Below are positions 12,295 through 56,976 of a DNA stretch of 64,000 nt, piece after piece (the first letter of the stretch is position 1; the number at the start of each line of letters is the position of its first letter). A program made the translations under genes and the position numbers. Where the stretch lies: assembly GCA_965231215.1 (NCBI GenBank), contig OZ246423.1, forward strand, positions 288,001 through 352,000, read 5' to 3'. Below the pieces are notes generated by a model. It did not search any database. It was not told the DNA's origin and worked only from the letters and a program-made list of their open reading frames with translations. The DNA comes from Candidatus Altimarinota bacterium (GTDB taxonomy: Bacteria > Patescibacteriota > Gracilibacteria > UBA4473).

Positions 12295-14223
<1,929 letters not shown>

Positions 14224-35041: not shown

Positions 35042-36265
35042 ATGAAAACCCCAACTATTATCGATCACTACGGTGACATTACGAATCCTGAATCTATGGA
35101 TATTGCCCCAGAAGCAATAGTAAACGCCGCTAACACTGGCTTGAGAGGTGGTGGTGGAGTTGATGGAGCTATTCACCGTGCGGCAGGGTACGAAGCATTA
35201 CAGGCTGAATGTGCTACCGTTCGTGAAGGCTTACCAAACCAACAGCTAGCTGTGGGAGAAGCGGTTGTTACCGGAGCTTGTGCACTTACCCAATTTGGCA
35301 TTAGTTATATTATTCATACGGTTGGTCCAGACTGCAGACTGAATGAACAAGCTGCACGAAAAGCCGAATTGCTGACTAATGCTTATACCAATAGCTTAAA
35401 ACAAGCCGTTAACCGCGGAGCAAAAACTATAGCCATCCCCGGCATTAGTACTGGTGTATATGGATATGATGCCGATGAAGCGGAAGATGTGTCACGTGCC
35501 GCTATAGAACAATTTTTTGCTAACGGGCATGATAAAGGCATTTTGCAAGAAGTTCACCGTGTGTTTTTTCCTGGATTTAAAAAAGAAGTTTTAGCCGTAG
35601 ATGACAGATCGATTGAAGTCGCCTTACACCCGCAGCTAGGTGCCGACACCATTACCATTATGATGGGAGGCCTAAACGGTCATGTTGATGGCTGGATGCA
35701 CAAAAATACAAAAGTTGCAGAGTTGTTACGTCGACAGGCTAATACCGCTGTTGTAAGAGCAGGTGGACCACAGGCAGAGGGCGGTGTTGAAGATCCACAC
35801 ATCATGCAGCAAGCTCGAGCACTGATTAAAAAAAGTATCGCTCAGGCAGAAGCTTTAACGGGTAAACCCGCCAGTGAACTTACCTTTCAGGTTTCCGGTT
35901 ATTCGGCTGGTGGTTCTGGCATGGCGGCGGTAGCGCATGAATTTCCACAAATTAAAAAAATGTTGTTGGTTGCCCCCTCGGTAAATGCCGGAGATAAAAA
36001 TGTTAAGCAAGGGCTTATGAAATTTAGAGGAAATGTGGCCATTACGGTTGGAAAAGAAGATGAGCTGGCAAAGTATGCTGAAAAGTTAATCGCTCATACT
36101 GAAGGAAGAACTCTCCCAATTCACTTTCAAGAACTTTCTAACGTGGACCACAGATTTACTGGGGTTCGTGGAGGTGAACTATTCTCCGCCTCATTTTTAT
36201 GGGGACTCGATAACCAAGGAGAGCATTTAGAAAGCAGCCAGCGTGGCATTAAGCTCTACAATTAG
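35042..36265 (+). CDS. Macrodomain (ADP-ribose hydrolase) fused to an alpha/beta hydrolase
   Basis: GDIT, AIVNAANTGLRGGGGVDGAIHRAAG, IIHTVGP, PGISTGVYG; C-terminal GYSAGG, D and H residues. Confidence 0.88.
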   Translation: MKTPTIIDHYGDITNPESMDIAPEAIVNAANTGLRGGGGVDGAIHRAAGYEALQAECATVREGLPNQQLAVGEAVVTGACALTQFGISYIIHTVGPDCRLNEQAARKAELLTNAYTNSLKQAVNRGAKTIAIPGISTGVYGYDADEAEDVSRAAIEQFFANGHDKGILQEVHRVFFPGFKKEVLAVDDRSIEVALHPQLGADTITIMMGGLNGHVDGWMHKNTKVAELLRRQANTAVVRAGGPQAEGGVEDPHIMQQARALIKKSIAQAEALTGKPASELTFQVSGYSAGGSGMAAVAHEFPQIKKMLLVAPSVNAGDKNVKQGLMKFRGNVAITVGKEDELAKYAEKLIAHTEGRTLPIHFQELSNVDHRFTGVRGGELFSASFLWGLDNQGEHLESSQRGIKLYN

Positions 36266-36653
36266 ATGGAGATAGGTGAGCCATTATTGCATCCAAAAAA
36301 TCCACGAATGGAATTTCGTGTCGAAGATAATACTCGATTCGATACAGCAGGTGGCTAATGCCGTTATTAATGGTATAAAAACAAGAATTTGCTTTCACAT
36401 TACAGTTGGATTTGAAGAAGCTTTTGTTCCAGCAGATGAAAATACTCTTTTTCAAGCACCAAAATTTAATACCCCGTTTAAGTTAAATACGGTGCATTAA
36501 AGAAAAGCTGCTCTTAGCTCACCTCCACCCCAAGTGCGTGGGAATACGACCCTAAAAGTACTTTTACAGATATCTAAAGGCCCAAGCACGCCAAAAATCC
36601 GACATTACCTTCTACATAGGTATGTGGGAATTGGCTGTACTTAAAGTATCAAT

Positions 36654-36683
36654 TGGCTGCGAACGATTGACCATATTAGAACC
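36654..36683 (+). repeat. att-like repeat TGGCTGCGAACGATTGACCATATTAGAACC
   Basis: One mismatch to 25112-25141. Confidence 0.8.
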
Positions 36684-36717
36684 TTTTACCAAAACTTGGA
36701 GTAATCATTAAGAACTC

Positions 36718-37776
36718 CTAAAAACCCAATCTTTCTAGCTCTGCTAAGTGTGGTTTTAGATCTTGATGATCAGGTATATAATTTCTGTCGATTAGAGGGT
36801 TTTGTCGACATCTTGGATCAGCTTCTCTTCGGTTATATTCTGTCCAATAATCTTCAACTATCTCTGGGTACTTGGTTTTTAGTATTTGAAGGAAGCGAAC
36901 CATCGTTGGTAGTGCTATCTTATTTCGCTCAATATTTTGCTTGTCAGCTTGTTCTTGATAGTCATCAGCATTGTAATCGAGCCTTGGCCAGTCTCGTTCA
37001 GTAAGAGCTAATCTTAACCCCATTACGATATCTCCAATTGATGAAGCTCCATTTGATAAATGAAAGTCTAAAATATTAAATCCTTGTTCTGGATCGTACA
37101 TAAAATTGGAAGGTTTTGGGTCAATAGTTATTCCATTTTCGTGTAACTCCAGCACCGTATCAATAAGCTGAGTAATATGTTCATCAGAGTACTCGATTGG
37201 CTCTTCTGGAGGAATTTGTGTTACATCTCTTCCAGACAGAAGTTCCATTATTACACAACTATCATCAAAAGAATAAGCTACAAGCTGTGCTGTATGCTCA
37301 ATCCCCTTTGCCTGTCTAAGTGGTTTCGTTTCAAAATTTGCTTGTGTCAAATTTCGAGAAAATTTAGCGGCGTATTTCTTTCCATTGACCTCAATTATGT
37401 ATGCACTTCCGTTGCTCCCAGACCCTAGGTATTCTGGAAGAGCTTTGGGGTCATCTGTACTGGCTAAATTTTGCTTTAATCGTTCAATTACAGGCCTAAA
37501 GGAGGTATTATAAAGCTCCGCGTTAGCATGTCGAAATTCCAACTCATCTTTGGGGGCATTTCGAATAGCCTCAGTATATTTTTTGCGGTTTTCTGTGATG
37601 ACTGTAGCTAGTTCTTCTGGAACATCTGATAACTCATCTAGATTTGTAATTTTGGAAAGCCTCGCACTATTGCCGAGCAATAATTTTTGTTCATCAGAAA
37701 ATTCTTTAACACCAGTATCAGCAAAAAATTCAGCTTGAGCCTGGAGTTCTTCGGGAGACTTTTGTCTTATTTTCAT
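36718..37776 (-). CDS. Protein kinase-like protein
   Basis: LGSGSNGSAY, AAKF, IMELL, DPKPSNF, LDF. Start taken at MKIRQ, after TGCTATAAT. Confidence 0.8.
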   Translation of the reverse strand: MKIRQKSPEELQAQAEFFADTGVKEFSDEQKLLLGNSARLSKITNLDELSDVPEELATVITENRKKYTEAIRNAPKDELEFRHANAELYNTSFRPVIERLKQNLASTDDPKALPEYLGSGSNGSAYIIEVNGKKYAAKFSRNLTQANFETKPLRQAKGIEHTAQLVAYSFDDSCVIMELLSGRDVTQIPPEEPIEYSDEHITQLIDTVLELHENGITIDPKPSNFMYDPEQGFNILDFHLSNGASSIGDIVMGLRLALTERDWPRLDYNADDYQEQADKQNIERNKIALPTMVRFLQILKTKYPEIVEDYWTEYNRREADPRCRQNPLIDRNYIPDHQDLKPHLAELERLGF

Positions 37777-37869
37777 TAGTATATTATAGCATTTTTTTAA
37801 AACAAAAACAATATGCACTAAGTAGCTGCAATCTACTTAGTGTATTAGAGCCTAATAAAGCAAAAAATG

Positions 37870-38166
37870 TTAGTTTACTAAGTTATACTCTTCCATCTCA
37901 CCATACACTTCCGAAATTTCAGTATTGAGTTGTTTTATATACTCTTTGGCTACCTGTGAAAAAAGATCTGCTTCAACATTTTCAAGTTCAATTTTAAACA
38001 CACCATCTTTTAATAGAGTTATTAGTTGATTGAATGCATTCTTTACCATAATTGGTTTGTCTTCACAGATTGGAATTCTAACTTGAGTGTCATCATCGTA
38101 TACTATTACGATTACTCTTTTATCATCAATATTTTCGACAGTTGCTTTAAGCGTTTTCATTACCAT
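37870..38166 (-). CDS. Small hypothetical protein coupled to the upstream ATPase remnant
   Basis: Overlaps the stop of the 38147-38455 fragment. Confidence 0.6.
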   Translation of the reverse strand: MVMKTLKATVENIDDKRVIVIVYDDDTQVRIPICEDKPIMVKNAFNQLITLLKDGVFKIELENVEADLFSQVAKEYIKQLNTEISEVYGEMEEYNLVN

Positions 38167-38455
38167 AGATTTTACTTCTTTCTCCAAATGCTTCAACACC
38201 ACCTTCAAGTGTTTTCATGCTGATCTTTTTCCAGTCAATTTTTAACGATTCATCTTCTGTATTAACAAGACTGTTTGAAAAAGGATTTCCAATAAAAGTC
38301 TTATAACCTTCTGGACCATGACTTCTATATACCGAGTTATATGGTAAGGTTCTTACAGCAATATTTGCATCATGAGTTGAGATAAAAATTTTTTTACCTG
38401 CTTTGGCTAGCTCTTTGATTATTGGAGCGATAATTTTATAGAATACCTCATTCCC
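38147..38455 (-). pseudogene. C-terminal fragment of an ABC/SMC-type (TrlF-like) ATPase
   Basis: IFISTHDANI H-loop and LEGG..AF..R...Y ending; Walker A and B missing. Confidence 0.65.
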
Positions 38456-38690
38456 GAAGACAAAAGGTATATATCCTTCAACTTTTCTCGAACAGAAAAC
38501 GGATAAAAGGTCGGACAAGTGTCCAATCACTTTATTTACTTGATAAAGACCCCCTGCACGTATGGAGGCTTTCGGTATTGGTTCATATGTCCAAAATGCA
38601 CAAACAGGTGCTGTATCGTTTATAAATTGCATGGAGGTTTCGCGTGTAGGAAATGCCAAAATCTGTGTTATCAACTTCAAAAAGAGTGGG
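38456..38690 (+). pseudogene. Fragment of a zinc-finger hypothetical gene common on mobile elements
   Basis: YGGFRYWFICPKC...FACRKCQNLCY; in-frame TAA upstream. Confidence 0.5.
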
Positions 38691-38704
38691 GCTACTTCAA
38701 GCTG

Positions 38705-38915
38705 TTTGGGAAGCTGTTCTACAAAAGGAAATATTGCACTCAACACAAAACTTATTAGAACGCCAAAAGACTGTATTCAGTATGTAATTGTGCACGAATT
38801 ATGCCATCTTTTGGAACATAACCACAGCAAGGAGTTTTACAGACTCCAACAAAAGCATTTCCCACTTTGGGAAAAAGCAAAAAAGAAACTGGAGATGTTC
38901 AGTTTCGAGATTTGA
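38705..38915 (+). pseudogene. C-terminal fragment of an M48/YgjP (DUF45) metalloprotease
   Basis: GSCSTKGNIALN...YVIVHELCHLLEHNHSKEFY; N-terminus absent. Confidence 0.75.
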
Positions 38916-38961
38916 TATTTAGTCCTCTGTAAAAATAACATTTTTTGACTATACTCTAAAT

Positions 38962-40290
38962 ATGTTAAATCAATCTTTTTCTGCAGAAAATTTTCGTAAA
39001 ATATTCGATATCGAAAATAGAAAAGGAGTTAATCTTGATGTTTTTTTCCCAAAAACAAGAAAGTTCACCGAAAAAATAAAATCATGTAATGAAGAAATAA
39101 GAAAAGCTAAAAGGCTAAAAAAGACAAAGGATGAAATAAAAAAATTGTATGAACAAAAGGCAGGATTTAGAAAAAAGAGAGAAACAGAATTAGATAAAGA
39201 ATTAGAAAAAGTATCAAAAAAATGTTTAGAAAAAAACTTCAGAATAAAACTCAATCAAGTTTTAATACCCAGCAAAAAGACTCTTTATACAGTACAAGAT
39301 CTCCCAAAATATTATTTTGCAGTTAAGCAAATTCAGCATAATCTTTCCCGATTATATAAAGTGAAGCAATCTGATAGAAGTGCCATTATGAGTAACTTTT
39401 TAACATTACTTAATGATGGTTTTCCTAAAGTTGTTATAAGGACTGATATTAGCGAATGCTACGAAAGTATTCCTCATGAGAAACTGCTAAAGAAAATAGA
39501 TGAGGATGGCTTGCTTGCATTTTTTTCCAAGAAAATAATTAAACAACTTCTATTTGATTACAAAAAAGCAGCAAAATCAAAAAAAGGTGTGCCACGAGGC
39601 ATCGGAGTCAGTGCCTCATTATCGGAGATTTATTTAAGAAAAATAGACATGGAAATTAAGAATATTCCTGGGCTCATTTACTACGCAAGATATGTTGATG
39701 ATATTGTAGCAATATTTTGCCCATCTAATGGGGAAACCGAAGACGAATATGGACAAAGCAAATTAAAATTAGTTAAAGAAAGCATTAAAAGTGCAGGATT
39801 AAAAGTGAATACAAAAAAAACAAAGTGTTTTCATTTGCTTGAAAACGACTATGAGACTGTAGATATAGATTATTTAGGATACGCTATAGAACTTAAATCA
39901 GGAGATCTCACGATTTCTTTAACAAAAAATAAAATTGATAAATATAAAAAGAAAATCGATTTAATATTTGATGCATATAAATTCAATAAGATAAATGACG
40001 AAAAATCCGCTAGAAAAATATTCGTTAAAAGAGTTCGTTTTATAACAGGGAACACTCGATTAAAAAATAACAAGAAAAATATATTAGTTGGAATTTATTA
40101 CTCTAATAAGCATTTATCTTCTTTGAAATCTCTAAAAATATTGGATGAATACTTAGAAAGAAAAGTCAGTACGTTACCAGATACTCTAAAAGATAGAATC
40201 AAAGACTATAAATTTTCAACAGGGTTTGAAACAAGACGTTTCTCTCCATTTACCAGTACCCAATTAAAGAATATAGTTTCTATTTTTTAA
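38962..40290 (+). CDS. drt3a: Antiphage reverse transcriptase, DRT3 subunit a (UG3-like)
   Basis: MLNQSFSAENFRKIF N-terminus, RTDISECYESI, GVPRGIGVSA, RYVDD, DYLGY. Confidence 0.88.
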   Translation: MLNQSFSAENFRKIFDIENRKGVNLDVFFPKTRKFTEKIKSCNEEIRKAKRLKKTKDEIKKLYEQKAGFRKKRETELDKELEKVSKKCLEKNFRIKLNQVLIPSKKTLYTVQDLPKYYFAVKQIQHNLSRLYKVKQSDRSAIMSNFLTLLNDGFPKVVIRTDISECYESIPHEKLLKKIDEDGLLAFFSKKIIKQLLFDYKKAAKSKKGVPRGIGVSASLSEIYLRKIDMEIKNIPGLIYYARYVDDIVAIFCPSNGETEDEYGQSKLKLVKESIKSAGLKVNTKKTKCFHLLENDYETVDIDYLGYAIELKSGDLTISLTKNKIDKYKKKIDLIFDAYKFNKINDEKSARKIFVKRVRFITGNTRLKNNKKNILVGIYYSNKHLSSLKSLKILDEYLERKVSTLPDTLKDRIKDYKFSTGFETRRFSPFTSTQLKNIVSIF

Positions 40291-40300
40291 GGCATTTAGA

Positions 40301-42301
40301 ATGAAGAAAAAAAGAAAAATTTCCATAAAATACACCAAGGCAAGAACGATTTTATCTGATGTTTTGCCTTATGAAATTCCTGTAATTTTTTCCAACAGAC
40401 ATTTCTATCGTTTTCTAAATAATTTTGAGCCGAACATTTCAAAAAAGTTGGTATCAATAGAAAAAAACAAAGAAAACAAAGTAGCTGCTGAATTAGCAAA
40501 TCTTATTTTTGGTGAAGATCATACAACTATTCCTTTTCTCTATAATATTACGCATAAAGGGGATGATTTCCGACAATTAACGCTGATTCACCCAAGAAAC
40601 CAAGTCGCTGTGATTGATTTTTACGAAGAATATAAAGACCTTCTTCTCTACTATTGCTCAATAAGCCCTTTTTCTATTAGATATCCAGAAAGAGTTGCTA
40701 AACTAACTTATTTTAGAGATAAGGTTCATCAAGAAAACCTTTCTACTGAACATGAACACGAACTTCTTGAAGAAAGGAATCGAGAATATGAAAATCTAAA
40801 AACTTTTTTTGTATACAAGAACTACAGCAATATTCACAGATTTTACGAATCATTTAAATATCATAGGTGTGAAAAAAAATATAATCGTCTTGTTAAATTT
40901 GATATACAAAAGTGTTTTGAAAGTATTTATACACATTCAATCTGTTGGGCAACTTTAAATAAAAAAATAGTAAAAGATAACCTAGGAAATAATAAAACGG
41001 AAAATACATTTGGAGGTAAATTTGATAGGTTAATGCAAAATTTAAATTACTCTGAAACAAATGGTATCGTTATTGGACCAGAGTTTTCCAGGATATTTTC
41101 AGAAATAATTCTTCAAAAAATAGATAAAGATGTATTAGCCGCACTTGAAGAGTCTACCAATCTAAAACATAAAGTTGATTTTGAAATATTTCGTTACGTT
41201 GATGATTACTTTCTTTTTTACAATAAAGAAGAAGATAGAGAGATAATTATGACAATATTTAAGCTGAATCTGAAAGAATATAAACTTCAGATTAGCAGAG
41301 AGAAGACTGAGATCTACGATAAACCAATTATTACATTGATCACTATAGCAAAACAGCAAATTAGGGATTTATTAAATGAATATCTTTCTTTTTCCTTAGA
41401 TGAAAAAGATGATCCAAATAAAAAAATATCCATATATGTAAGTTCAAATGCTCTTATTACTAAATTCAAAACAATACTAAAGCAAACAGAAGTTGAATAT
41501 AAAGACATTTTGAATTACACGCTGGCTATTATAGACCGTAAAATCGTTAAGATTTTGAAAGATTTTAAAGAAAATAAATTTGAAGAAAAAAAGTTAATAA
41601 ATGCTTTGTTTGAGATTCTTGAATTTACATTTTTTGTTTACTCTGTTTTCCCTAAAGTAAATACCACAGTTAAGTTATGCCACATTTTAAGCAAAATAAC
41701 AAACTTCATAAGTAAGAATCCTAAGAAAATTAATATTGATCATGCGCACCTCTTGAAAAAAAAGATATTTGATGAAGCTTATTTGGTCTTAAAAAAGAAT
41801 AAAACTAAATCACATATTCAAATCGAAACGCTTTATTTATTGATTGTTTTACAAGAGCTCGGAAAAGAATATCTCTTAGATCAAGAAGTTTTACGAGATT
41901 ACTTCAATCCAGATCAAAAAAAGAATTGGGAAGAGGTTGATTTAGAATATTTTTCAATAGTCGTTTTACTTTTCTACATTAAAAACAAAAAGAGGTATGA
42001 AGACCTAAAGAATCAATTAAGAGTTATCATTTTAGAAAAATTTAAGAAATCTAATGTGACAGATAGACACAAAAAATCAGAACTAGTATTACTGCTTTTA
42101 GATCTCCTTAGTTGTCCATACTTAGAGGAATCGTTTAAAAAAGAATTATTAGAACTTAGAAAAATAACGAATAATCAAACAAAAGAGCAAATAATCGCTT
42201 GGGGAAAGAAAGAAAAAGAGAATAGATATTGGTTTGTGAAATGGGAAGGATTTAACTTAGAAAAAGAATTAGATGCAAAGAAAGGTCAGGAAGTTTACTA
42301 A
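40301..42301 (+). CDS. drt3b: Antiphage reverse transcriptase, DRT3 subunit b (UG8-like)
   Basis: LSDVLPYEIPVIFSN, FDIQKCFESIYTHS, GIVIGPEFSRIFSE, RYVDDY; 10 bp downstream of drt3a. Confidence 0.88.
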   Translation: MKKKRKISIKYTKARTILSDVLPYEIPVIFSNRHFYRFLNNFEPNISKKLVSIEKNKENKVAAELANLIFGEDHTTIPFLYNITHKGDDFRQLTLIHPRNQVAVIDFYEEYKDLLLYYCSISPFSIRYPERVAKLTYFRDKVHQENLSTEHEHELLEERNREYENLKTFFVYKNYSNIHRFYESFKYHRCEKKYNRLVKFDIQKCFESIYTHSICWATLNKKIVKDNLGNNKTENTFGGKFDRLMQNLNYSETNGIVIGPEFSRIFSEIILQKIDKDVLAALEESTNLKHKVDFEIFRYVDDYFLFYNKEEDREIIMTIFKLNLKEYKLQISREKTEIYDKPIITLITIAKQQIRDLLNEYLSFSLDEKDDPNKKISIYVSSNALITKFKTILKQTEVEYKDILNYTLAIIDRKIVKILKDFKENKFEEKKLINALFEILEFTFFVYSVFPKVNTTVKLCHILSKITNFISKNPKKINIDHAHLLKKKIFDEAYLVLKKNKTKSHIQIETLYLLIVLQELGKEYLLDQEVLRDYFNPDQKKNWEEVDLEYFSIVVLLFYIKNKKRYEDLKNQLRVIILEKFKKSNVTDRHKKSELVLLLLDLLSCPYLEESFKKELLELRKITNNQTKEQIIAWGKKEKENRYWFVKWEGFNLEKELDAKKGQEVY

Positions 42302-42304
42302 ATA

Positions 42305-42436
42305 AGATATTGGAATATAATAGGTTTGTTCGACTCCGTCTAAACTCCAATTCACACACAAGTCGACGTTTCCTTCTTTTGTTTAAAACAATGAAAGATT
42401 GAACAATAAAGTAGCAGGGACGGGCTACTTTTTTTT
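42305..42436 (+). ncRNA. Putative DRT3-associated structured ncRNA with an ACACAC tract
   Basis: Directly follows drt3b; several complementary segments, CACACACA at 42353-42360, ends in a terminator. Boundaries approximate. Confidence 0.7.
42408..42436 (+). terminator. Intrinsic terminator of the DRT3 locus
   Basis: AAAGTAGC-agggacgg-GCTACTTT followed by a T run. Confidence 0.8.
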
Positions 42437-42691
42437 GTAAAATTTTTTTTTGGGAATAAGAAAAATATCACAATGTAATTTCCACTTAGTGCCCCTTCGT
42501 CCTAGGTACACGGGTCTGTCTGCCTTCTTTTCCGCCGATCCAATCCCACAAAGCATACAGAAAAAACGGGTCTAGAACCCTTAGAATATTTCTGTACGTG
42601 GATCACTATGATGCATAGTGTACGTAATGGCTGACTACTCGGGTCTAGAAACAAAAATGAGACAAATAAGACAGTATAAAAAAGGAGTGTC

Positions 42692-42910
42692 TCAAACGTG
42701 GAATCGTTTATCAGTCTTAGATTTTTCCAGTCTGCGTTTCTGAAATTCTCTTACCGCTTCTTCGGGAAAGATCCAACCCGCTGAAGTTCTTTGGGCTGGA
42801 ATAAGTTTATCGCTTATAATACGTTGGATAAAACTACGCGAGACGTTCAGGATTCGCTGAACATCTTTTGAACCAACCAGTTTTACGCCATTAAAATAAT
42901 CTTTCTCCAT
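42692..42910 (-). CDS. Small excisionase/MerR-like helix-turn-helix protein
   Basis: SKDVQRILNVSRSFIQRII...IPAQRTSAGWIF. Confidence 0.75.
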   Translation of the reverse strand: MEKDYFNGVKLVGSKDVQRILNVSRSFIQRIISDKLIPAQRTSAGWIFPEEAVREFQKRRLEKSKTDKRFHV

Positions 42911-42999
42911 ACGATGGTTTTTGTCTTGCCATTGTATGTTGAATCTGGCTTAATATCAGTGTGCAATTGCATACTAATTTTATAACCTGATATTTTCTC

Positions 43000-44064
43000 A
43001 TGAATAACAAAGAAAAACCGAAATCAAAAACGAGAATATGGCGCTGGATTGGCCTCTATATCATCATTTCATTTCTGGCAGGACTAACCATCGCCTTACC
43101 ACCAGTCGGAGGTCTTTTGAGTATTTGGTTTATCTGGAGTTGGAATAAGCAAGATAAAAAGACTAAAGAATTGATAGGTAATATTAAATCACACCCTTGG
43201 CGTATAGCCTTTACGGTTTTAGTGGCTTTAGCCATGTTTGCAAAATCCAGCTCAATGTTACTTGGGACTTTAGTGATACTTTTACTAATTTGGCTGTTTC
43301 CAAATACAGAAAAAGAAACTTTGGTAGAAAGATTAAAAGGCTTCAAATCACATAAAGTAAAAACAGGAGTGTCCACCTTCTTGCTACTAGTAGGAGGAGT
43401 AATGACCATCGGTCTTCATAGCTCAGAAAAACTGATCCAAGAGCAGAAAGAATTTATTGAGTCATATCCAACCCCTGTAATCCAAGTAGAGAGCATTCCC
43501 CATCAAGGAGCGAATACTGAGTATGATCTGACTTTTACGGTAAAAGATACAGAAAGCGTTAGGATCAATGGAAAACCGATAGAAGTTCTTGAAGGAAATA
43601 TTGACTATAAAGTGTCTCTAAACCAACCGACAACGAACTTAAAGATCGAAGCTAAAAATCAGCATAAGCAGGCAACAAAAGATATTATTATCCAAAGAGA
43701 TAAAACCGAAGCTGAATTAATAGCTGAGGAAGAAGAAAGAAAAAGACAAGCTGAACTGGCTAAACAAAAAGCGGAAGCCGAAAGGCTCGTAGAACTAAAC
43801 AGCGTCAGTGATTCTGAAGCTTACGTCATGGCCCAAGGTTTTGTGAAGGCTATGCTGAAGTCTCCTAAAACAGCTGATTTCCCCTTTCTAGATTACAGTC
43901 ATAGAAACTTAGGCGATGGGAAATGGATTATTCAATCTTATGTGGATTCACAAAACGGTTTCGGAGCGATGATACGAACTCAATATCAAGTAGAGATGCA
44001 ATTTAACGGCGGTGATTGGGCAGAACAAAGAAATTGGACTCTACTAGATATATCCACTCAGTAG
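43000..44064 (+). CDS. Membrane protein with an Ig-like domain and a conserved C-terminal domain
   Basis: N-terminal TM helices; LKSPKTADFP...YVDSQNGFGAMIRTQY. Confidence 0.75.
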   Translation: MNNKEKPKSKTRIWRWIGLYIIISFLAGLTIALPPVGGLLSIWFIWSWNKQDKKTKELIGNIKSHPWRIAFTVLVALAMFAKSSSMLLGTLVILLLIWLFPNTEKETLVERLKGFKSHKVKTGVSTFLLLVGGVMTIGLHSSEKLIQEQKEFIESYPTPVIQVESIPHQGANTEYDLTFTVKDTESVRINGKPIEVLEGNIDYKVSLNQPTTNLKIEAKNQHKQATKDIIIQRDKTEAELIAEEEERKRQAELAKQKAEAERLVELNSVSDSEAYVMAQGFVKAMLKSPKTADFPFLDYSHRNLGDGKWIIQSYVDSQNGFGAMIRTQYQVEMQFNGGDWAEQRNWTLLDISTQ

Positions 44065-44125: not shown

Positions 44126-44407
44126 ATGATTATTCCAGAATATAAGAAGCAACTACAAACAGCCCTTAAAAAGGTGCAAGGAACTTTGACAAAAGTGGAT
44201 AAAATGGTTGAATCTGAAGAATACTGCCCAAAAACAGTCCAAATGATTAGTGCCGCCGAAGGTTTACTTCGAGGAGCAAAGCTTAAGATACTTGAAAACC
44301 ACCTGCAAACCTGTGGACATAAGAAAATGGCTTCAGCAAATGAAGAAGATCGGGCTGATTTTGCTAAAGAGCTCATTAAAATTTTAGATGTCTCATCTCG
44401 TAAATAA
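44126..44407 (+). CDS. CsoR/RcnR family metal-sensing repressor
   Basis: LKKVQG...MVE..EYC..Q...ILENHLQTC (C-H-C ligands). Confidence 0.88.
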   Translation: MIIPEYKKQLQTALKKVQGTLTKVDKMVESEEYCPKTVQMISAAEGLLRGAKLKILENHLQTCGHKKMASANEEDRADFAKELIKILDVSSRK

Positions 44408-44408
44408 A

Positions 44409-44954
44409 ATGGAACATAATCACCACCATCACGATCTCCCTGAAAAAAGCCTAAAAACTTACTGGCCACTCATTTTGGTCTTGCTTTTTGTAATTGGTGG
44501 AACGCTTCACTTTGGCTGGCTTCGAGGTGATTACAATCTGTGGATGACGGATTTTAGTGATTCATTTGATCCCCGAAATTGGATGACTGATTTTATGGGA
44601 CTGTTTTTCTTGTTTTTTGCTTTTTTCAAACTGCTAGATGTAAAAGCATTTGCAGATGCCTATCGAAGTTACGATATCCCGACTAAACTTTGGCCAACTT
44701 GGGGTTACATTTACCCCTTTGTTGAACTTGCTTTTGCTATGCTCCTGCTTCACAGAATTGAATTATTTTGGACAAACATCGCCATTGTCATCGTACTCAG
44801 TGTGAGCATTATTGGCGTGATTCAAAGTGTTATGAAGAAACGTAAAATTCAATGTGCCTGTCTTGGAACAGGGTTCAATCTGCCAATGAGTCAGGTAACT
44901 ATTATTGAAGATGGAGCTATGATTCTCATGGCCGTACTTATGCTCGTCCTATAG
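44409..44954 (+). CDS. MauE/DoxX-like heavy-metal-associated membrane protein
   Basis: His-rich N-terminus, FFKLLDVKAFA, YPFVE, IQCACLG, IIED. Confidence 0.8.
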   Translation: MEHNHHHHDLPEKSLKTYWPLILVLLFVIGGTLHFGWLRGDYNLWMTDFSDSFDPRNWMTDFMGLFFLFFAFFKLLDVKAFADAYRSYDIPTKLWPTWGYIYPFVELAFAMLLLHRIELFWTNIAIVIVLSVSIIGVIQSVMKKRKIQCACLGTGFNLPMSQVTIIEDGAMILMAVLMLVL

Positions 44955-44992
44955 ACATAAACCTAAGAAACCTTTATTCTTCTAATCGAAAG

Positions 44993-45382
44993 ATGAAAAC
45001 AATTTTAGCCCTAACCGCTCTCTCCTCGAAGCTCACCATGCTTCTGTGTGTGAGTTGTATGGGGTTATTTAGTGTTGTTCAAGATTCTTTCGCGGCCGAT
45101 ATGCCACCTTGTCATCAAGAAGTAGTACAAGAAGATGAAGCCAAAGAACCTTGTGAAGTGTGTGAAACGGCTCTTGAAGCGTGGGAAGAAAATGCAGTGG
45201 CTACTTCTGATATTCAGACGGTCAAAGTTACAGAACTCACTTTTGTAACCGATAATGTTCTTGAAAATTTTGTACTAGAACTAAAACCTTTAGAAGGTGT
45301 TTACCAAGCTTATTATCCTCCGCCACAAGTTTTATTGAAGGCGGTTACTCCAAATACCAAGACCATAGTGTTGTTGTCTTAG
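44993..45382 (+). CDS. Small secreted or membrane Cys-containing protein
   Basis: Hydrophobic N-terminus, MPPCH, CEVC, PPP near the end. Confidence 0.6.
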   Translation: MKTILALTALSSKLTMLLCVSCMGLFSVVQDSFAADMPPCHQEVVQEDEAKEPCEVCETALEAWEENAVATSDIQTVKVTELTFVTDNVLENFVLELKPLEGVYQAYYPPPQVLLKAVTPNTKTIVLLS

Positions 45383-45494
45383 TTTTTTTCCCTCTTACGA
45401 TCTTTTTTGATTCGTAAGAGTATTTTTGTGTCTGAAAGTATGTTTCTTTCAGTCTTTCTTTTATTTGTTTATTTATTTTTAATTATAAAATTTC

Positions 45495-45884
45495 ATGAAA
45501 AAATCACTTATCGCTTTCGTTCTCCTTACTTCTTTAACACTTGTTGGTTGTGGACAAAAACCAATGACTGATGCAGATATGGCCGCTAAGTATGGACTCT
45601 CCCTTGAAGAGTACCAAGAACAAAAAGAAGCCGCTGCTCGAATGAATATGAGCATTGAAGATCATCTAAACATGGGACACGGAGGTGATCATGGAAGCAC
45701 AGACCAAGAAGATGTGCCAGAGGGATATCACATGATGCCTGATGGAACCATGATGAAAAACGAAGATATGAATCATGATATGGATGAAAAGTCAGATTCA
45801 GACATGGATTCACATGAAAAAGCCGCTGCTGATATGGGAATGACTCTCGAAGAACATGAAGCCGCTGGACACCCTGGTCACTAA
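45495..45884 (+). CDS. His/Met-rich lipoprotein, putative Cu chaperone
   Basis: Lipobox LVGC; HMMPDGTMM and repeated M/L-S/T-xE-E/D-H units. Confidence 0.75.
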   Translation: MKKSLIAFVLLTSLTLVGCGQKPMTDADMAAKYGLSLEEYQEQKEAAARMNMSIEDHLNMGHGGDHGSTDQEDVPEGYHMMPDGTMMKNEDMNHDMDEKSDSDMDSHEKAAADMGMTLEEHEAAGHPGH

Positions 45885-45895
45885 ACTGCTTAATT

Positions 45896-47608
45896 ATGAA
45901 AAAATTAATATACCAAAAACGATATTTAATCCTTGGGGTTCTGGGGATAATAGTTTTAGTAGGACTTGGTAGTTGGTATTTCAACTCAAATGATTCTTCC
46001 AAAAATACTTTCTCTAAAAAAGAGAATGTTTGGGAAACGGTTGAAGTAAAAAACGCCAAAGATTTTTCTTCAATTAAAATCCCTGCCAAAGCTAAATCGA
46101 ATCAATTTGCCGTTATTTCTCCAAGGAGAACTGGAATTATTCAAGATTTATTGGTGGATATAGGCGATGAAGTCTATAAAGGGCAAACTATCGGATCAAT
46201 GCTCCCAGAGGGAGTAGAAGGGCAAAGTTCTGCTGCTATTAATGAAGCAAGTGCTAGACTTCAAAAAGCACGAGCCGAACTTGCCAACTCTAAGGGAGTG
46301 GCTGTTGATGCTGTTTCTGTCGCCACTAAACAATGGAGGGAAAGCAACCTACAATCAACAACTCAATCAAACTTAGGAGCAGAAACTCAAAAACAACTAG
46401 CCGAAAAGAAATCCGAAGCCATTTTAGTAGCGACTCAGGCCTGGGAAAACACAAAGCTGGTACTCTTTGGTAATGGAGCGAATAGAGGGTCTCGTGACGT
46501 TCGTGGTAACTTCTCGGACTCAATACAAGAGACGAAAGTAGAAAACCTAGCGAATGAAATACAGCGCATGGAAGAATCTGGTCAGTGGAATAATCCTGAT
46601 CGGATTGTGGAACACCTATCGCATCTTGAGAGCTTTCTGGTTCAGGCAGAAACTTTGTATAAAAATGCTCGAGAAGGCAGTGGGGTTACCGCTTCTCAAA
46701 TCAGTAGTAATCTAAGTACTATTCAGGCTCAACAGCTCCGAGTTACACAAGTGAAGCAATCAATTTTAGCTCTAGAAGAAAAAAGTCAGCGTTTTTCCTC
46801 AGTTCAAGCCGAGCGTGAAGCTGGAGCAGAACGATCTCGTGAAGTGTTGGACTTAGTACAGTCACAGCAAGACTTGAGCATTACCCAAGCGGAAAAGAAT
46901 GTAGAAGTCGCTTTAGCGAATTACAATGCAGCTCTAGTGAAAGCTGGACATCAATCTATCACTTCGCCTTTTAGTGGAGTTATTACGGCTCGAATGACTG
47001 AAGTAGGGCAAGCCGTTACGATTAATATGCCACTCTTTTATCTTGAAGGAGCTCAAACTGCTAGAAGTCAGGAAGCTTTATCTGAAATTCATTTCAGCTT
47101 ACCTGAGTCATGGCGAAAAAAAGTTTCTGTTGGAGACATGGTCACACTCAAAACCGTTGAAGGAGAGTCTTTCGAAGGAACTATTTTTCGTCTTAGTGAA
47201 CATATCAACTTAGAAAGCAATAGCATTATGGCTACCGCTACGGCTTTTGAAAAAACCTATGAAGAAGTTGTTATCGAAGACGAAACTGAAGAAGAAACAT
47301 CTACGGAGGAATCGCAAGAAAAAGAAATGAAGGAGATTGTAACTCCAGTGGATTTTGAACACGGACAAAGTTTGTTTGTCTATGTGACGGCTTCTGACAG
47401 TAATATCTTTACGGTTCCAACTTTGGCTTTGAAAAAACGAAGTAACAATTACTTCCTTTGGAAAATGGAGGAAGAAAATCCTATTCAACTTGAGGTTGAA
47501 ATAATGGCTGAAGACGGAGAATTCTCTCAAGTCTTCACCAAACAATTAAAAACAGGTGATTCTATTATTAGCAATCCATCGGTTTCTTTATTTAAACAAT
47601 CATCATGA
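45896..47608 (+). CDS. RND membrane fusion protein (CusB/HlyD-like)
   Basis: N-terminal TM, VDIGDEVYKGQ, long coiled coil, ITSPFSGVI. Confidence 0.85.
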   Translation: MKKLIYQKRYLILGVLGIIVLVGLGSWYFNSNDSSKNTFSKKENVWETVEVKNAKDFSSIKIPAKAKSNQFAVISPRRTGIIQDLLVDIGDEVYKGQTIGSMLPEGVEGQSSAAINEASARLQKARAELANSKGVAVDAVSVATKQWRESNLQSTTQSNLGAETQKQLAEKKSEAILVATQAWENTKLVLFGNGANRGSRDVRGNFSDSIQETKVENLANEIQRMEESGQWNNPDRIVEHLSHLESFLVQAETLYKNAREGSGVTASQISSNLSTIQAQQLRVTQVKQSILALEEKSQRFSSVQAEREAGAERSREVLDLVQSQQDLSITQAEKNVEVALANYNAALVKAGHQSITSPFSGVITARMTEVGQAVTINMPLFYLEGAQTARSQEALSEIHFSLPESWRKKVSVGDMVTLKTVEGESFEGTIFRLSEHINLESNSIMATATAFEKTYEEVVIEDETEEETSTEESQEKEMKEIVTPVDFEHGQSLFVYVTASDSNIFTVPTLALKKRSNNYFLWKMEEENPIQLEVEIMAEDGEFSQVFTKQLKTGDSIISNPSVSLFKQSS

Positions 47609-48111
47609 AAAAATTACTATTATTACTTATTCTTACCGCTGTATTCATCACTGGATGTAGCCAGCAAAAAACCACGTCCACCCAAGAACTTGGGGGACAA
47701 ATTCAAGCTCAAGATGGTTTACTCTACGACTTTGGCAGTATCGACATCAATGGAGGGATTGTTTCTAAAACTTTCCAATTCAAAAATACAGACACCAAAC
47801 CTTTAGCCATTTATGAAGCTACAACTTCTTGTGGGTGTACTATGGGAGAAATCAAAGTTGGAGCAAAAACTTATGGGCCGTTTGGAATGCACAACCAAAC
47901 CAAGCAGACCATTGAAGTGCCCGCTCAAAGTGACTTCAGTGTCACTATTTCTTACGATCCCTTATTTCATGGGCCAACTGATTTAGGGGAAAGACAAAGA
48001 ACATTGTTCCTCTTTTCTAGTGCTGAAGTCGATGGAAAAGTTGTCAGAAATTACCAAGGAAAACCAAATTTCACCGAAATCAGTGTTCGGGGGAATGTGA
48101 TTAAAAACTAA
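47605..48111 (+). CDS. DUF1573-like lipoprotein
   Basis: ITGC lipobox, YDFG, FKN, TSCGCT. Confidence 0.75.
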   Translation: MKKLLLLLILTAVFITGCSQQKTTSTQELGGQIQAQDGLLYDFGSIDINGGIVSKTFQFKNTDTKPLAIYEATTSCGCTMGEIKVGAKTYGPFGMHNQTKQTIEVPAQSDFSVTISYDPLFHGPTDLGERQRTLFLFSSAEVDGKVVRNYQGKPNFTEISVRGNVIKN

Positions 48112-48138
48112 ATATTCTACATTTCTAATTTTAAACCT

Positions 48139-49017
48139 ATGTCATCTTGTTCACACCATCATCATAGTCACGAAACTAAAAACTTAGGCCTGGTATTTCT
48201 GCTCAATTTTGGTTTTGCGATTCTTGAATTTATTGGTGGAATACTAAGCCAAAGCACAGCGCTGCTTTCTGACGCTATCCACGATATGGGTGACGCTTTA
48301 GCCATTGCCCTTGCTTGGATATTTGCCAAGGTTGGACAGCGAGGACGAAGCCAAAAGTTTTCTTATGGTTATAAGCGATTTTCTCTATTAAGTGCGTTAA
48401 TTGCCAGCCTGATTTTAGTTTTTGGGGCAATAGCCATGATTGTTTTAGCTGTTAGTAGGTTGCAAGCCCCGGTCGAGGTTCATAGCGACTTAATGATTCT
48501 GTTCGCTATTCTGGGAGTAGCGGTTAATGGCTTTGCTGTTCTAAAAATGAGGTCTGGTAAAACCCTTAACGAACAGGTTATTTCATTTCATCTACTTGAA
48601 GATTTACTGAGTTGGGTAGCTGTATTGATTGGCGCGGTCGTTATTTATTTCACAGACTGGTATTGGCTTGATCCAGTGATGGCAATTGGAATTTCTCTGT
48701 GGATTTTTGTACATGGACTGCAAAAAGGAAGCCAAGCAGCTCAATTGTTTTTACAATCCGTCCCTAACGGTGTTGATCAAGCCGTATTATTAAAGGCTCT
48801 GAAAAAGATTCCTCAAGTACAAGAAATTCACGATTTACATCTGTGGTCGCTAGATGGAGAATCAAATATAGGTTCGTGTCACATAGTGATCAACAAAAAT
48901 ACAGATGCTGAGCTTTTAAAGCAGAAAATCAGAATGTGTTTTGCTCATAACAATGTTCAACACGTGACTATCGAACTAGAAACTCCAGAGGAAGAATGTC
49001 CTCACCAAAAATGCTAA
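48139..49017 (+). CDS. Cation diffusion facilitator (CzcD/ZitB-like)
   Basis: His-rich N-terminus, LLSDAIHD, FSYGYKR, HLLED, IHDLHLWSL. Confidence 0.93.
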   Translation: MSSCSHHHHSHETKNLGLVFLLNFGFAILEFIGGILSQSTALLSDAIHDMGDALAIALAWIFAKVGQRGRSQKFSYGYKRFSLLSALIASLILVFGAIAMIVLAVSRLQAPVEVHSDLMILFAILGVAVNGFAVLKMRSGKTLNEQVISFHLLEDLLSWVAVLIGAVVIYFTDWYWLDPVMAIGISLWIFVHGLQKGSQAAQLFLQSVPNGVDQAVLLKALKKIPQVQEIHDLHLWSLDGESNIGSCHIVINKNTDAELLKQKIRMCFAHNNVQHVTIELETPEEECPHQKC

Positions 49018-49027
49018 AGAATAAATT

Positions 49028-52000
49028 ATGAACTACCTACTTAAATACCTTCTTGAAAATAGATTTTTAACCGCCTTACTGTTTTTGATTTTATCAGGAA
49101 TGGGAATCTGGGCGATTAAGAATACTCCTGTTGATGCTTTGCCTGATCTATCAGAGAATCAAGTAATTGTGGTTACGCAATGGGCTGGTCAATCACCCCA
49201 AAACATCGAGGATCAGATCACCTATCCACTTACTACAGCTATGCAGTCCTTACCAAAAGTAAGGACAGTACGAAGTAGCTCTATGCTTGGGGTCTCAATG
49301 GTGACGGTTATTTTTGAAGATGACACAGGTATTTATTTTGCTCGTGATCGGGTAAATGAAAAGCTCTCTCAGCTTCAATCAACCTTTCCAGAAGGAGCAA
49401 TGGTGCGACTTGGGCCAGATGCTACAGGACTAGGGCACATCTTGATGTATAAGTTAGAGAATCCTGACATGTCGCTTACGGATTTACGAACACTTCAAGA
49501 CTTTACTGTAAAATTAGAATTAGAGAGCCTAGGAGGGATTTCGGAAGTCGCTTCTATAGGAGGGTATAAAAAACAGTATCAAGTCATTATCGATCCTATC
49601 AAGCTTGAAGATTTTAATCTAAACTTGATGACCGTGGTGAACACTATCAAAGCCAGTAATAATAATGTTTCTGGGAGAGTGCTTGAATATGGAGAACGAG
49701 AAATATCAGTTCAAGGGATTGGTTTTTTTGATTCAGAAGAAGCTCTAAAGGATCTCATAATTGGGAAAAAAACGAGCGGTGAAAGTTTGCTTTTGTCTGA
49801 AGTTGGAACCGTTCGAGTCAGTGGGGCTTCTCGACGAGGAGTCTTAGCCGACAAGGAAACTGAAAAGGTCGGAGGAATTGTGGTCATGCGATATGGAGAA
49901 AATCCGCTAGAGGTTATCAAGCGAGTAAAAACAAAAATAGACCAATTAGAATCAAGTCTCCCTGAAGGGACGTCTATCATACCTTTCTATGATCGAACCG
50001 AGCTCATTAATAGAGCTATCAAGACAATGAGAGATGTTCTGTTGCAGATGCTTCTTATCACGGCAGTTGTTATGTGGCTATTTCTTCGTCATAAAGGAGC
50101 AACTTTCATAACCTCAATGGCACTTGTATTTGGAGTGATGATGACTTTTTTAGTCATGAAGTTGTTTGGAATTCCCTCAAATATTATGTCTCTGGGAGGG
50201 ATCGCTATTGCCATAGGAACGATGGTCGATTCTATCATTGTGGTAACTGAAAATGCGTATCAAAAACTCATCAAAGCAGGAGAAAGTAAAACACAGAATT
50301 TTTCGGAGCGTTTGAAAATTGTTTATGAGGCAACCTCTGAAGTAGCTGTCCCTCTCCTTTTTGCGATCTTGATTATTATGCTCTCTTTTATTCCAATATT
50401 TGCCTTAGAGGGCATGGAAGGAAAGTTATTTAAACCTCTGGCTTTTACGAATATATTTGCCATGCTTGGAGCTCTTGTAGCCTCCTTGATATTTGTGCCG
50501 CTTGGGTGTGCTTACTTCCTGAAAGGCAAACTCTATGAAGATCATAATATTCCAACGGTTTTTTGGTTTCAGAAGTTTTATGAACCTCTTTTAAGTAAAG
50601 CTTTAAAACACCCCAAAAAGACTATTGGGAGTGCCATCATAGCCCTGCTTATTGCTTTAGGGCTTGGGACTCAAATTGGTTCTGAATTTATGCCCCCCCT
50701 AGATGAAGGAGCCATTATGTACATGCCGATGACCGTTCCTGATGTATCAGAACGAAAAGCTACGGAACTGCTGATTGAGACCAATAAAATCTTATCTGAA
50801 TTTCCAGAAGTTGAATCCGTCGTTGGGAAAGCTGGTCGAGCCGATAGTGCAACCGACCCTGCTCCTTTAGCGATGTTAGAAACTTTTATCATGCTCAAAC
50901 CAAAAAGTGAATGGAGATCAGGTATGACCAAGGAAAAACTCATTACTGAGATGAATCGAAAGGTAAATTTTCCTAACCTTTGGAATGGATTTACTCAGCC
51001 GATTATTGGGCGTATCGACATGATATCTACTGGAATTCGAGCTCAAGTAGGAATCAAAGTATTTGGCGATGATGCGAAGAAACTAGAAGACCTTGCGATA
51101 GAAATTGAAGGGATGATGGCTTATGTGCCTGGAGCGGTGGGAACAGTCGCTATTCGAACCTCGGGACTTAAATATCTCAATGTGGATTTAGATGAAGGAA
51201 AACTCGCTTCTTATGGTATACCTAAAAGCCAAGCTCTCAATGCTATCGCTATTGGAACGGGTGGAAAAACAATTACTCAGACCATTCAAGGAAGAGAAAA
51301 GTATGGCATTGAGCTTCGTTTTACTCGTAATCAACGAGCAAAAATCCCAGATATTAAAGGACTTCAACTAAGAGGTATGAACGGTCAAAAAGTAGCCCTC
51401 TCTGAAGTGGCAGATATTCGTGTTGAAGATGGGCCTGCTGTACTTCAGTCAGAAGACGGAAAGCTCCGTTCTGCGGTTCAAATGAATGTGAGTGGACGTG
51501 ATCTCGTTTCTTTTGTTAAAGAGACTGATGAATACTTAAAAGAGAATCTAGAACTTCCTGCTGGCTATACTATAGAGTTTGATGGTCAATATAAAAATCA
51601 GGTTCGAGCCAAAGAGAAATTATCGGTAGTAGTACCGTTAGTAATTCTTATTATATTTGTTCTGCTCTACCTCACCTATGCAGATTTGAAACTCGTTTCA
51701 GTGGTAATGCTCGCTATTCCGCTAAGTCTTATTGGAGGATTATTGGCGTTGTTCTTAGCTCAGTACAATTTCTCAGTGGCAGTTTGGGTTGGTTTCATTG
51801 CTTTATTTGGAAACGCGGTAGAGACAGGCGTGGTAATCGTTCTCTATCTAGATCAGGCCGTGAAGAAAGCTCAGGAAAAATTTCAGACACTTACGCAGTC
51901 TCAAATTGAATCTGCCATCCTTGAAGGAGCGACCAAAAGACTTCGTCCAGTACTTATGACCGCTTTCACATCCATTATCGGGCTTATTCCGATGCTTATT

Positions 52001-56928: not shown

Positions 56929-56976
56929 ATAAAAAAGACCTAGACTATAAGTTTTATCCCGGCATCAATTAGGTTG

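Follow-up and report, generated by a model that had tools for sequence, protein, structure and literature searches.

Two reverse transcriptase genes

Two adjacent reverse transcriptase (RT) genes lie on the + strand of the window, the 64-kb stretch of DNA analysed here as a whole: drt3a (38962-40290), encoding a UG3 class 2 RT of 442 aa, and, after a gap of 10 nt, drt3b (40301-42301), encoding a UG8 class 1 RT of 666 aa. Both frames are intact, and their adjacent, co-oriented order is that of DRT type 3 (DRT3) systems. An earlier note on this DNA had described two co-oriented, AT-rich RT frames of these lengths, each with a YVDD motif, and had assigned them as a UG3 and UG8 pair with a downstream non-coding RNA (ncRNA), that is, as DRT3. 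This description held up throughout. GC content is 0.27-0.29 at 39-42 kb versus ~0.40 in the surroundings; the catalytic YVDD, present in both RTs as in DRT3, reads ARYVDDIV in Drt3a (residues 244-247) and FRYVDDYF in Drt3b (residues 299-302); both proteins pass their curated cut-offs, and an ACACAC-bearing ncRNA follows downstream. The PADLOC search suggested in the same note returned Drt3a and Drt3b as the best matches of the 442-aa and 666-aa proteins, respectively.

Drt3a scored 364.6 bits against the NCBIfam equivalog NF041747 (cut-off 200), with residues 1-441 on profile positions 1-411 of 412, and matched the PADLOC Drt3a model at 1.4e-107, its second-best PADLOC family being UG17 (1.4e-29). 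It also matched the solved chain named 'Drt3a' (PDB 9z6y_A; 3.3e-20, 75.7 bits), and it keeps 27/27 invariant and 39/42 near-invariant columns of 74 Drt3a sequences.

Drt3b consists of an RT domain, a helical-repeat domain and a C-terminal tail whose final residue is Tyr666. Its score against the NCBIfam equivalog NF041748 was 769.4 bits (cut-off 350), covering profile positions 1-647 of 647, and the PADLOC Drt3b model gave 1.2e-210. Among solved structures, PDB chains 26cz_A (2.1e-84) and 9z6y_H, named 'Drt3b' (3.7e-81), were matched, with a best score of 287.5 bits. Among 30 homologues, R91, D201, F206, R264, YVDD and E664-V665-Y666 never vary, and E25 is kept in at least 90%. In the alignment to 26cz_A (offset 108), Glu25, Arg91 and Arg264 fall on E22, R71 and R241 of the E. 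coli protein; this alignment ends at residue 624, short of the C-terminal tail, so Y666 is assigned from the C-terminal EVY, which is invariant in the homologues. The gating residues and the C-terminal priming tyrosine expected of DRT3 are thus both found. Judged from these alignments, Drt3b retains every residue important in E. coli, the C-terminal priming tyrosine included.

The non-coding RNA and its template loop

Downstream of drt3b, on the + strand, lies the DRT3 ncRNA (approximate limits 42322-42440), placed by folding, RNAalifold, a covariance model and covariation. A 6-bp stem, P1 (42330-42335 with 42361-42366; fold and covariation), closes a 25-nt template loop (42336-42360). The 3' end of this loop, CACACACA (42353-42360), carries the 5'-ACACAC-3' template (42354-42359), as in DRT3 ncRNAs. 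A hairpin, P2 (42370-42403), and a terminal hairpin, P3 (42408-42415 with 42424-42431; covariation), follow, and a U-run (42432-42439) comes after P3. The structured segment and terminator that had been noted 3' of the RT genes are real features: the terminator-like hairpin with its T-run spans 42408-42431, and the sequence preceding it shows both structure and conservation.

The structure was derived from a fold of the window sequence, an RNAalifold consensus of 15 loci and a covariance model, which we built ourselves because Rfam apparently has no DRT3 ncRNA model. In the 64-kb window, itself the source of one of the 15 training sequences, the model had a sole match, at 42321-42453 (96.9 bits); over 796 kb it gave 47 matches at E<=0.01, all on the + strand directly after Drt3b. 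In the covariance alignment, which is fitted to the model, 92.1% of structure cells were paired versus 74.3% in shuffles, and compensatory change was seen in 14/14 pairs; the observed values were reached by 0/500 shuffles. The covariation is located in P1 and P3, and P2 is a single hairpin in 47/47 loci (mean z -3.65). Folded as a single sequence, the window ncRNA showed no excess stability over shuffles (z -0.53), and support for the structure thus comes entirely from comparison with other loci.

Related loci have the same organisation. Of 80 such loci, 79 have a Drt3a gene immediately 5' of Drt3b, and the 80th is cut by its contig end. ACACAC occurs on the + strand within 260 nt past the Drt3b stop in 74/74 loci, and GTGTGT in 2/74. 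This 74-locus comparison, which spans at least 10 phyla, checks the ncRNA architecture independently. The template loop found here is of a short form, without an internal hairpin, that some of the Bacteroidota-type loci also have.

Promoter-like sites were scored by match to the consensus only. The top-scoring site in 38400-43100, TTTACT-16-TATAAT (42294-42321, + strand, 10/12), overlaps the drt3b stop codon and ends 8 nt before P1, and is possibly a promoter of the ncRNA's own. A weak site, TTGATA-18-TAACAT (38912-38941, + strand, 9/12), lies upstream of drt3a. The scanned region held 14 such sites, fewer than shuffles did (mean 20.3), so the drt3a match alone is no evidence of function.

Host genome and probable horizontal acquisition of the cassette

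The host genome is a single contig of 1.33 Mb and 99.29% complete, within a sampled phylum whose genomes span 0.4-2.0 Mb. The earlier note's guess of a CPR host fits both this size and the nearest organism-named S3 proteins, all from 'Candidatus Gracilibacteria'. Some Gracilibacteria read TGA as glycine. Here, the reading frames of RpoB (1218 aa) and RpoC (1276 aa) are free of internal stops and TAA closes both DRT3 genes, so the standard genetic code was used for translation.

The cassette has a GC content of 0.2805, lower than any of the 2646 sliding windows of 3.5 kb taken across the genome (mean 0.3987, sd 0.023), and the two genes have a GC3 of 0.21-0.23. As the lowest-GC stretch of its length in the genome, the cassette was probably horizontally acquired. 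CPR genomes carry few known defences, and Drt3b was above cut-off in 1/401 phylum genomes, this one alone; none of the other 400 has it above cut-off. The host is an unusual one. Drt3a was above cut-off in 1/43 family genomes and in 0/4 other genomes of the same genus. In a tree, the window protein clusters with two metagenomic proteins (99% support) in a mostly Bacteroidota half. Composition, rarity in phylum and family, and tree placement together point to probable horizontal acquisition. Carriage of the window copy by phage left no sign in the sequences searched: matches to Drt3b in three phage records were partial and distant (~27%), and IMG/VR gave 12 contigs at 28-45% identity. A full-length Drt3b, 90% identical, is present on another contig (P0002), which suggests that the lineage is maintained.

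The cassette is surrounded by gene remnants, such as a C-terminal fragment of YgjP (38562-38915), and sits beside a lost tRNA-Gln(CTG) site. No flanking repeats were found around the low-GC segment, only short, low-identity chance pairs, and the left flank (35042-38900) had no counterpart in 20 family genomes. PADLOC found no complete known system among 10 neighbours, only weak matches, and no match to a SLATT partner among the neighbours scanned. It also placed an MkoA-like helicase 25 kb from DRT3. Given such weak matches and a distant helicase, a 'defence island' is not supported.

Mechanism, alternatives and known systems

We conclude that the locus is very probably a complete canonical DRT3 cassette (drt3a, drt3b and ncRNA), horizontally acquired by a Gracilibacteria-type CPR bacterium and working by a mechanism homologous to that of E. 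coli. At the locus itself we observed the identity and intactness of the genes, all of the catalytic, gating and priming residues tested, and an ncRNA that carries the template and has covarying stems. In E. coli, the DRT3 product is a poly(dTdG)/poly(dCdA) double-stranded DNA (Wang et al. 2026 preprint, PMC13174585), and ACACAC of the ncRNA is the template for poly(dTdG) synthesis (PMC13174585; structures PDB 26cz, 9z6y and 9z6z; see also Deng et al. 2026, as cited in a review, PMC13314766). Since this product is now known, the locus is less mysterious than the earlier note implied.

By analogy, Drt3a would be an RNA-templated poly(dTdG) synthase, binding the ncRNA and copying ACACAC of the P1 loop repeatedly. 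Drt3b would be a protein-primed, protein-templated poly(dCdA) synthase, priming from its own C-terminal Tyr666 and adding dA and dC in alternation with no nucleic-acid template, under the guidance of Glu25 and Arg264. The two strands would pair as poly(GT/AC) duplex DNA, and the build-up of this duplex during infection would abort phage growth. We infer these DNA products, the defence and the restraint of DRT3 in this host from the known system.

Other explanations must be weighed against this reading. One is that the RTs are of a different class (retron, group II intron, DGR, AbiK/AbiA/AbiP2 or another UG group), to which there are weaker secondary matches: the group II intron RT/maturase model TIGR04416 gave 83.4 and 48.5 bits (cut-off 300), Drt4 gave 105.7 bits (cut-off 450), and PADLOC matched AbiK at 2e-19 and UG17 at 1.4e-29. 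However, these matches fall far short both of their own cut-offs and of the scores for Drt3a and Drt3b, and ncRNA, template and gene order are those of DRT3. The Rfam scan of 37500-44000 on both strands returned no family at E<=1, and hence neither a group II intron nor a retron RNA. A group II intron was accordingly rejected on the TIGR04416 scores and this null; a retron was rejected for want of a retron RNA in Rfam and of an effector among the neighbours, and retron models are absent among the PADLOC matches listed (the best 25 per protein). The neighbours also showed no DGR partner. This agrees with the earlier note, which had seen no intron, retron effector or DGR partner and had named grouping with retron, group II intron or Abi RTs as the outcome that would speak against DRT3; the matches to those families are weaker and below cut-off. 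With the Drt3a and Drt3b scores, the Rfam null and ACACAC in 74/74 loci, another RT class is ruled out for practical purposes. A cassette that is intact and idle, recently transferred and either unexpressed or non-protective in its host, would account for a composition unadapted to that host (GC 0.28 versus 0.40, GC3 0.21-0.23), for the lack of an above-cut-off copy in the other 42 family genomes, and for a position among gene remnants beside the lost tRNA-Gln(CTG) site. Yet both frames run their full length with neither frameshift nor stop, all invariant residues and the ncRNA stems are retained, and P0002 carries a full-length Drt3b of 90% identity; we consider an idle passenger improbable.

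A canonical DRT3 may nonetheless be controlled differently here. According to the E. coli study, DRT3 is toxic there without RecBCD (PMC13174585). RecC (PF04257) had no match in the 99.29%-complete, single-contig host genome, so that control may not be the same here, or carrying the cassette may come at a cost. The sole PDDEXK_1 protein of the host (1046 aa; genome positions 747854-750994) has a UvrD-helicase plus PD-(D/E)XK nuclease architecture, and this single AddA/RecB-like enzyme scores far below the recB (165.9 bits, cut-off 696) and addA (146.7 bits, cut-off 708) cut-offs. The product of the gene upstream of it (1076 aa; genome positions 743694-746924) matched no Pfam, NCBIfam, PDB or atlas cluster, and an AddB identity for it was dropped. 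These observations would fit a reading in which the biochemistry is that of DRT3 and the poly(GT/AC) duplex is restrained and released outside the RecBCD/Gam axis described in E. coli, through the AddA/RecB-like or another nuclease. AddAB-type enzymes are, however, the usual functional counterpart of RecBCD, and a divergent one may exist in this host; RecBCD dependence was shown for a single E. coli system, and of the 80 related loci many presumably come from phyla with AddAB instead of RecBCD. We regard such separate control as possible, though not the likelier case. More tentative still is the wider proposal that DRT3 operates in a RecBCD-less, probably host-attached CPR bacterium with another nuclease or sensor as its check, as a first CPR DRT3 obtained from Bacteroidota-like neighbours. 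If true, the locus would be a natural test of the real DRT3 trigger, and even 1.3-Mb symbionts would acquire two-polymerase DNA-writing immunity. Given the RecBCD dependence of DRT3 in E. coli and the lack of a RecC match here, the host lends itself to a simple comparative test of DRT3 restraint and triggering.

Under the canonical DRT3 reading that we favour, the locus is a member of a known and mechanistically solved system, with no new mechanism. It shares with E. coli DRT3 the a-b-ncRNA order, YVDD in both RTs, an ACACAC template within the loop of an RNA 3' of drt3b, and in Drt3b the equivalents of E22, R71, D182, F187 and R241 together with a C-terminal priming Tyr. It differs in sequence, its matches to the solved chains being distant (Drt3b, 287.5 bits; Drt3a, 75.7 bits), in the position of the priming Tyr, which is penultimate there and the last residue (Tyr666) here, and in its host, a 1.33-Mb CPR bacterium in which no RecC was found. 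Among the papers listed in literature searches, judged mostly by title or abstract, none was found on DRT3 in Patescibacteria, CPR or Gracilibacteria, and one paper on DRT systems mentions CPR in the context of UG38 only. The description of the canonical UG3+UG8 group gives an exposed 'CACACA'-like motif after UG8 (Mestre et al. 2022, PMC9226505); the UG3-UG8-ncRNA architecture with a CACACA motif is the same here, with no difference from that text found, and CPR members may already be among that group.

DRT10/UG17 and DRT9/UG28 are class 2 RTs with a cis ncRNA, in which a short RNA-loop template is copied repeatedly, as in Drt3a (PMC13174585), into tandem-repeat or homopolymer DNA; unlike the present locus, they have a single RT and no protein-templated second strand, and DRT10 has a SLATT partner. 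AbiK, DRT4/UG15 and DRT6 are class 1, protein-primed, untemplated RTs, and Drt3b, which has weaker PADLOC matches to Drt6, Drt4 and AbiK, resembles them in its RT plus helical-repeat build and tyrosine priming. Those enzymes act alone and make random or other products, whereas the locus described here has a partner RT, an ncRNA and the E/R gating residues. The full three-part DRT3, priming tyrosine and ACACAC template included, is thus conserved in a cassette that reaches a CPR genome: the system is ordinary, and the host is unusual.

The reverse transcriptase pair

The two reverse transcriptase (RT) genes lie 10 nt apart on the forward strand: drt3a (38962..40290) encodes a 442-aa protein containing ARYVDDIV, and drt3b (40301..42301) a 666-aa protein containing FRYVDDYF. 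Coordinates, lengths and YVDD motifs are exactly those that an earlier note, made from the sequence alone, had claimed for two adjacent, co-oriented ORFs. Their AT-richness is likewise borne out, with a GC of 0.27-0.29 over 39-42 kb vs ~0.40 on either side. Over the whole genome, a 1,326,059-bp single contig with a GC of 0.3987, the cassette segment has a lower GC (0.2805) than any of 2646 sliding 3.5-kb windows, whose mean is 0.3987 (sd 0.023). The sole other 3.5-kb-window stretch in the genome with GC at or below 0.31 is found at ~1,246,500-1,251,500 (locus L135), where 500-nt windows range from 0.25 to 0.32 and several short ORFs (146-322 aa) are present.

Both proteins pass the NCBIfam equivalog cut-offs for DRT3, in agreement with the earlier reading of a UG3+UG8 pair. 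Drt3a scores 364.6 bits (cut-off 200), with residues 1-441 on profile positions 1-411 of 412, and Drt3b 769.4 bits (cut-off 350), spanning positions 1-647 of 647. A PADLOC search, which the note had proposed, concurs (Drt3a, 1.4e-107; Drt3b, 1.2e-210). The top solved-structure matches are chains deposited as DRT3 components: Drt3b matches 26cz_A, a SUMO fusion, at 2.1e-84 and 9z6y_H ('Drt3b') at 3.7e-81, while Drt3a matches 9z6y_A ('Drt3a') at 3.3e-20. Pfam recovers only RVT_1 in both RTs. Other RT classes were also considered: a group II intron RT model gave 83.4 and 48.5 bits, far under its cut-off of 300, and the Drt2 (55.4 bits, cut-off 390) and Drt4 (105.7 bits, cut-off 450) models also fell far short.

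In passages of the Wang et al. 2026 preprint (PMC13174585), E. coli Drt3b is described as adding dA and dC alternately under gating by E22 and R241, with an active site lined by R71, D182, F187 and YVDD, and with Y666 as the DNA priming residue. A HMMER alignment to 26cz_A (tag offset 108) places E22, R71 and R241 at E25, R91 and R264 of the window Drt3b. In an alignment of 30 Drt3b homologues (52-90% identity), R91, D201, F206, R264, Y299-V300-D301-D302 and the C-terminal E664-V665-Y666 are invariant, and E25 is kept in at least 90%. For Drt3a, we drew on the best 80 of 273 relatives from a scan of one genome per species; the Drt3a gene is directly upstream of Drt3b in 79 of them, and the other (L022) ends at a contig edge. 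With 7 of the 80 excluded as cut, partial or interrupted, the window protein has 27/27 invariant and 39/42 near-invariant columns of 74 Drt3a sequences, including D162, V245-D246-D247 and K286.

The downstream RNA and its conservation

Both Mestre et al. 2022 (PMC9226505) and Wang et al. 2026 (PMC13174585) describe the DRT3 ncRNA as sited 3' of UG8/drt3b, with a conserved CACACA/ACACAC motif borne in a loop as the template for poly(dTdG). On the forward strand of the window, TCGACT (42330-42335) pairs in the fold with AGTCGA (42361-42366) as the template-loop stem P1, closing a 25-nt loop, CCGUCUAAACUCCAAUUCACACACA, that holds ACACAC at 42354-42359. A second hairpin (P2, 42370-42403) and a terminal hairpin (P3, 42408-42431, loop AGGGACGG) follow, the latter running into a U-run (T-run in DNA). 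These elements account for the structured non-coding segment and terminator noticed earlier after the RT genes and, with both RTs full length and the ACACAC template downstream, the proposed complete DRT3 copy holds. The top-scoring promoter-like site of the region, TTTACT-16-TATAAT (42294-42321, forward strand; a consensus match only), ends just 5' of P1 and is a possible candidate for the ncRNA's own promoter. Folded alone, the window ncRNA is unremarkable (z -0.53).

The structure is supported by comparison across loci. At 73 of the 80 loci, Drt3b is complete at its end and is followed by 150 nt or more of sequence, giving 74 regions with the window. All 74 carry ACACAC on the coding strand, no more than 260 nt past the Drt3b stop; the reverse motif, GTGTGT, occurs downstream in 2. 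RNAalifold on 15 loci yielded 6 pairs in P1 and 8 in the terminal hairpin, with compensatory changes at each pair. When a covariance model made from this alignment was searched against 796,145 bases on both strands, 47 matches were obtained at E<=0.01, all on the plus strand immediately 3' of Drt3b, and 32 of these are loci outside the training set. The window, itself a training sequence, has a single match (42321-42453, 96.9 bits). In the alignment fitted to the model, window included, pairing cells reach 92.1%, vs 74.3% after shuffling and 27-55% when partners are slid; double changes occur at 14/14 pairs, compensatory cells number 125 vs 33.6 expected, and none of 500 shuffles matched any observed covariation value. 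The middle segment (P2) is a single hairpin in 47/47 loci (mean z -3.65; 37 below -2), with stem sequences unrelated between loci.

Two ncRNA forms were seen among the related loci. In one, to which the window belongs, the template loop is short, at 24-26 nt. In the other, found in most proteobacterial and acidobacterial loci, loops measure ~33-43 nt and an additional internal hairpin stands immediately 5' of CACACA.

Host, origin and neighbourhood

The probable CPR host suggested earlier is upheld. The genome is one 1.33-Mb contig, 99.29% complete, and 401 sampled same-phylum genomes span 0.4-2.0 Mb. The best organism-named relatives of ribosomal protein S3 (66-74% identity; 7 of the best 120 rows) are 'Candidatus Gracilibacteria bacterium', with one further row named just 'bacterium'. 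RpoB and RpoC are open frames without internal stop, and the standard genetic code thus applies.

Of the 401 phylum genomes, only that of the window holds a Drt3b above cut-off; 63 further model matches are weaker RTs (at most 121 bits). Drt3a is above cut-off in 1 of 43 family genomes and in none of 4 other same-genus genomes. Drt3b homologues at E<=1e-20 number at least 3008 among 7999 scored candidates, the nearest being P0002 (90%, on a 3.5-kb contig) and P0003 (59%), with others at or below 55%. A quick maximum-likelihood tree built from 76 proteins joins these two and the window protein in a clade (99% SH-aLRT) within a 52-row half, 40 rows of it Bacteroidota; because rooting was at the midpoint, the tree does not name a donor. 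Rarity in phylum and family, tree placement and outlying composition together point to horizontal acquisition of the cassette.

To the left lie genes for a macro-domain protein and a kinase-like protein, followed by the C-terminal fragment of a YgjP-like gene (38562-38915); no counterpart of this flank was found in 20 family genomes. Gene remnants occupy 38519-38915, just 5' of drt3a. The YgjP-like metallopeptidase fragment matches only profile positions 143-205 of 207. Two other ORFs overlap it, one zinc-ribbon-like and the other on the minus strand (38147-38746), for which PADLOC gives a weak match to PDC-M49A.

To the right of the ncRNA, ~170 nt of non-coding DNA (42477-42650), without an Rfam match, is 72-85% identical to DNA in several same-family genomes. 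In two of these (G416 and G214) its counterpart directly adjoins a tRNA-Gln(CTG) gene, which is absent from the window genome, where the only tRNA-Gln is TTG (61805-61879); the cassette thus sits next to what is left of a tRNA locus. Such loci are typical hotspots for incoming DNA, and the segment may have been the original trailer of a tRNA gene since lost, in which case it would mark a hotspot of integration. Its minus strand bears a small hairpin and T-run at 42580-42568. Beyond it, a 42-47-nt element (42653-42699) has an A-rich core flanked by the inverted pair GAGACA/TGTCTC. With several copies in G416 and G405 and one in G415 (91-95% identity), it may be a small repeat dispersed among genomes of this family.

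Further right, an HTH_17 gene is followed by a metal-efflux (metal-resistance) cluster at 44126-52144, which comprises a CsoR-like repressor, a MauE-like membrane protein, an HlyD-type adaptor, a cation-diffusion facilitator and, at 786.9 bits, an AcrB/RND pump, which seems unexpected in a small CPR genome. Next, the stretch 52979-61879 holds a ParB-N and DNA methylase fusion, a terminase large-subunit-like protein (Terminase_6C), a large serine recombinase and, at its end, tRNA-Gln(TTG); it has the look of a remnant of a prophage or integrative element. A PADLOC search of 10 neighbouring genes gave no complete known defence system flanking DRT3. Elsewhere in the window, a 642-aa superfamily-1 helicase (12295-14223; AAA_11/AAA_12) has a PADLOC match to MkoA (Mokosh) across its helicase part (1e-78); it may stand alone or belong to a further defence system.

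Comparison with the studied system

The literature searched yielded no paper on DRT3 in CPR bacteria, although CPR members may already be included in the taxonomy table of Mestre et al. 2022. Passages of a review (PMC13314766) cite Deng et al. 2026. According to the abstract of PMC13174585, loss of RecBCD makes E. coli DRT3 toxic, and the RecBCD inhibitor Gam acts as its trigger. RecC was looked for in the window genome (99.29% complete) and not found. The genome's single PD-(D/E)XK match is a 1046-aa UvrD-type helicase-nuclease, far under the recB and addA cut-offs. This AddA/RecB-like protein (UvrD-helicase plus PD-(D/E)XK nuclease) and its upstream ORF lie at genome positions 743694-750994 (L103); the 1076-aa upstream neighbour matched nothing in Pfam, NCBIfam, PDB sequences or the protein atlas. 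The two may be a very divergent AddAB-type pair, and as such a candidate substitute for RecBCD. We conclude that the window locus is a canonical, intact DRT3 cassette. DRT3 is now mechanistically explained, and this copy adds a new member to the known system, in an unusual host.
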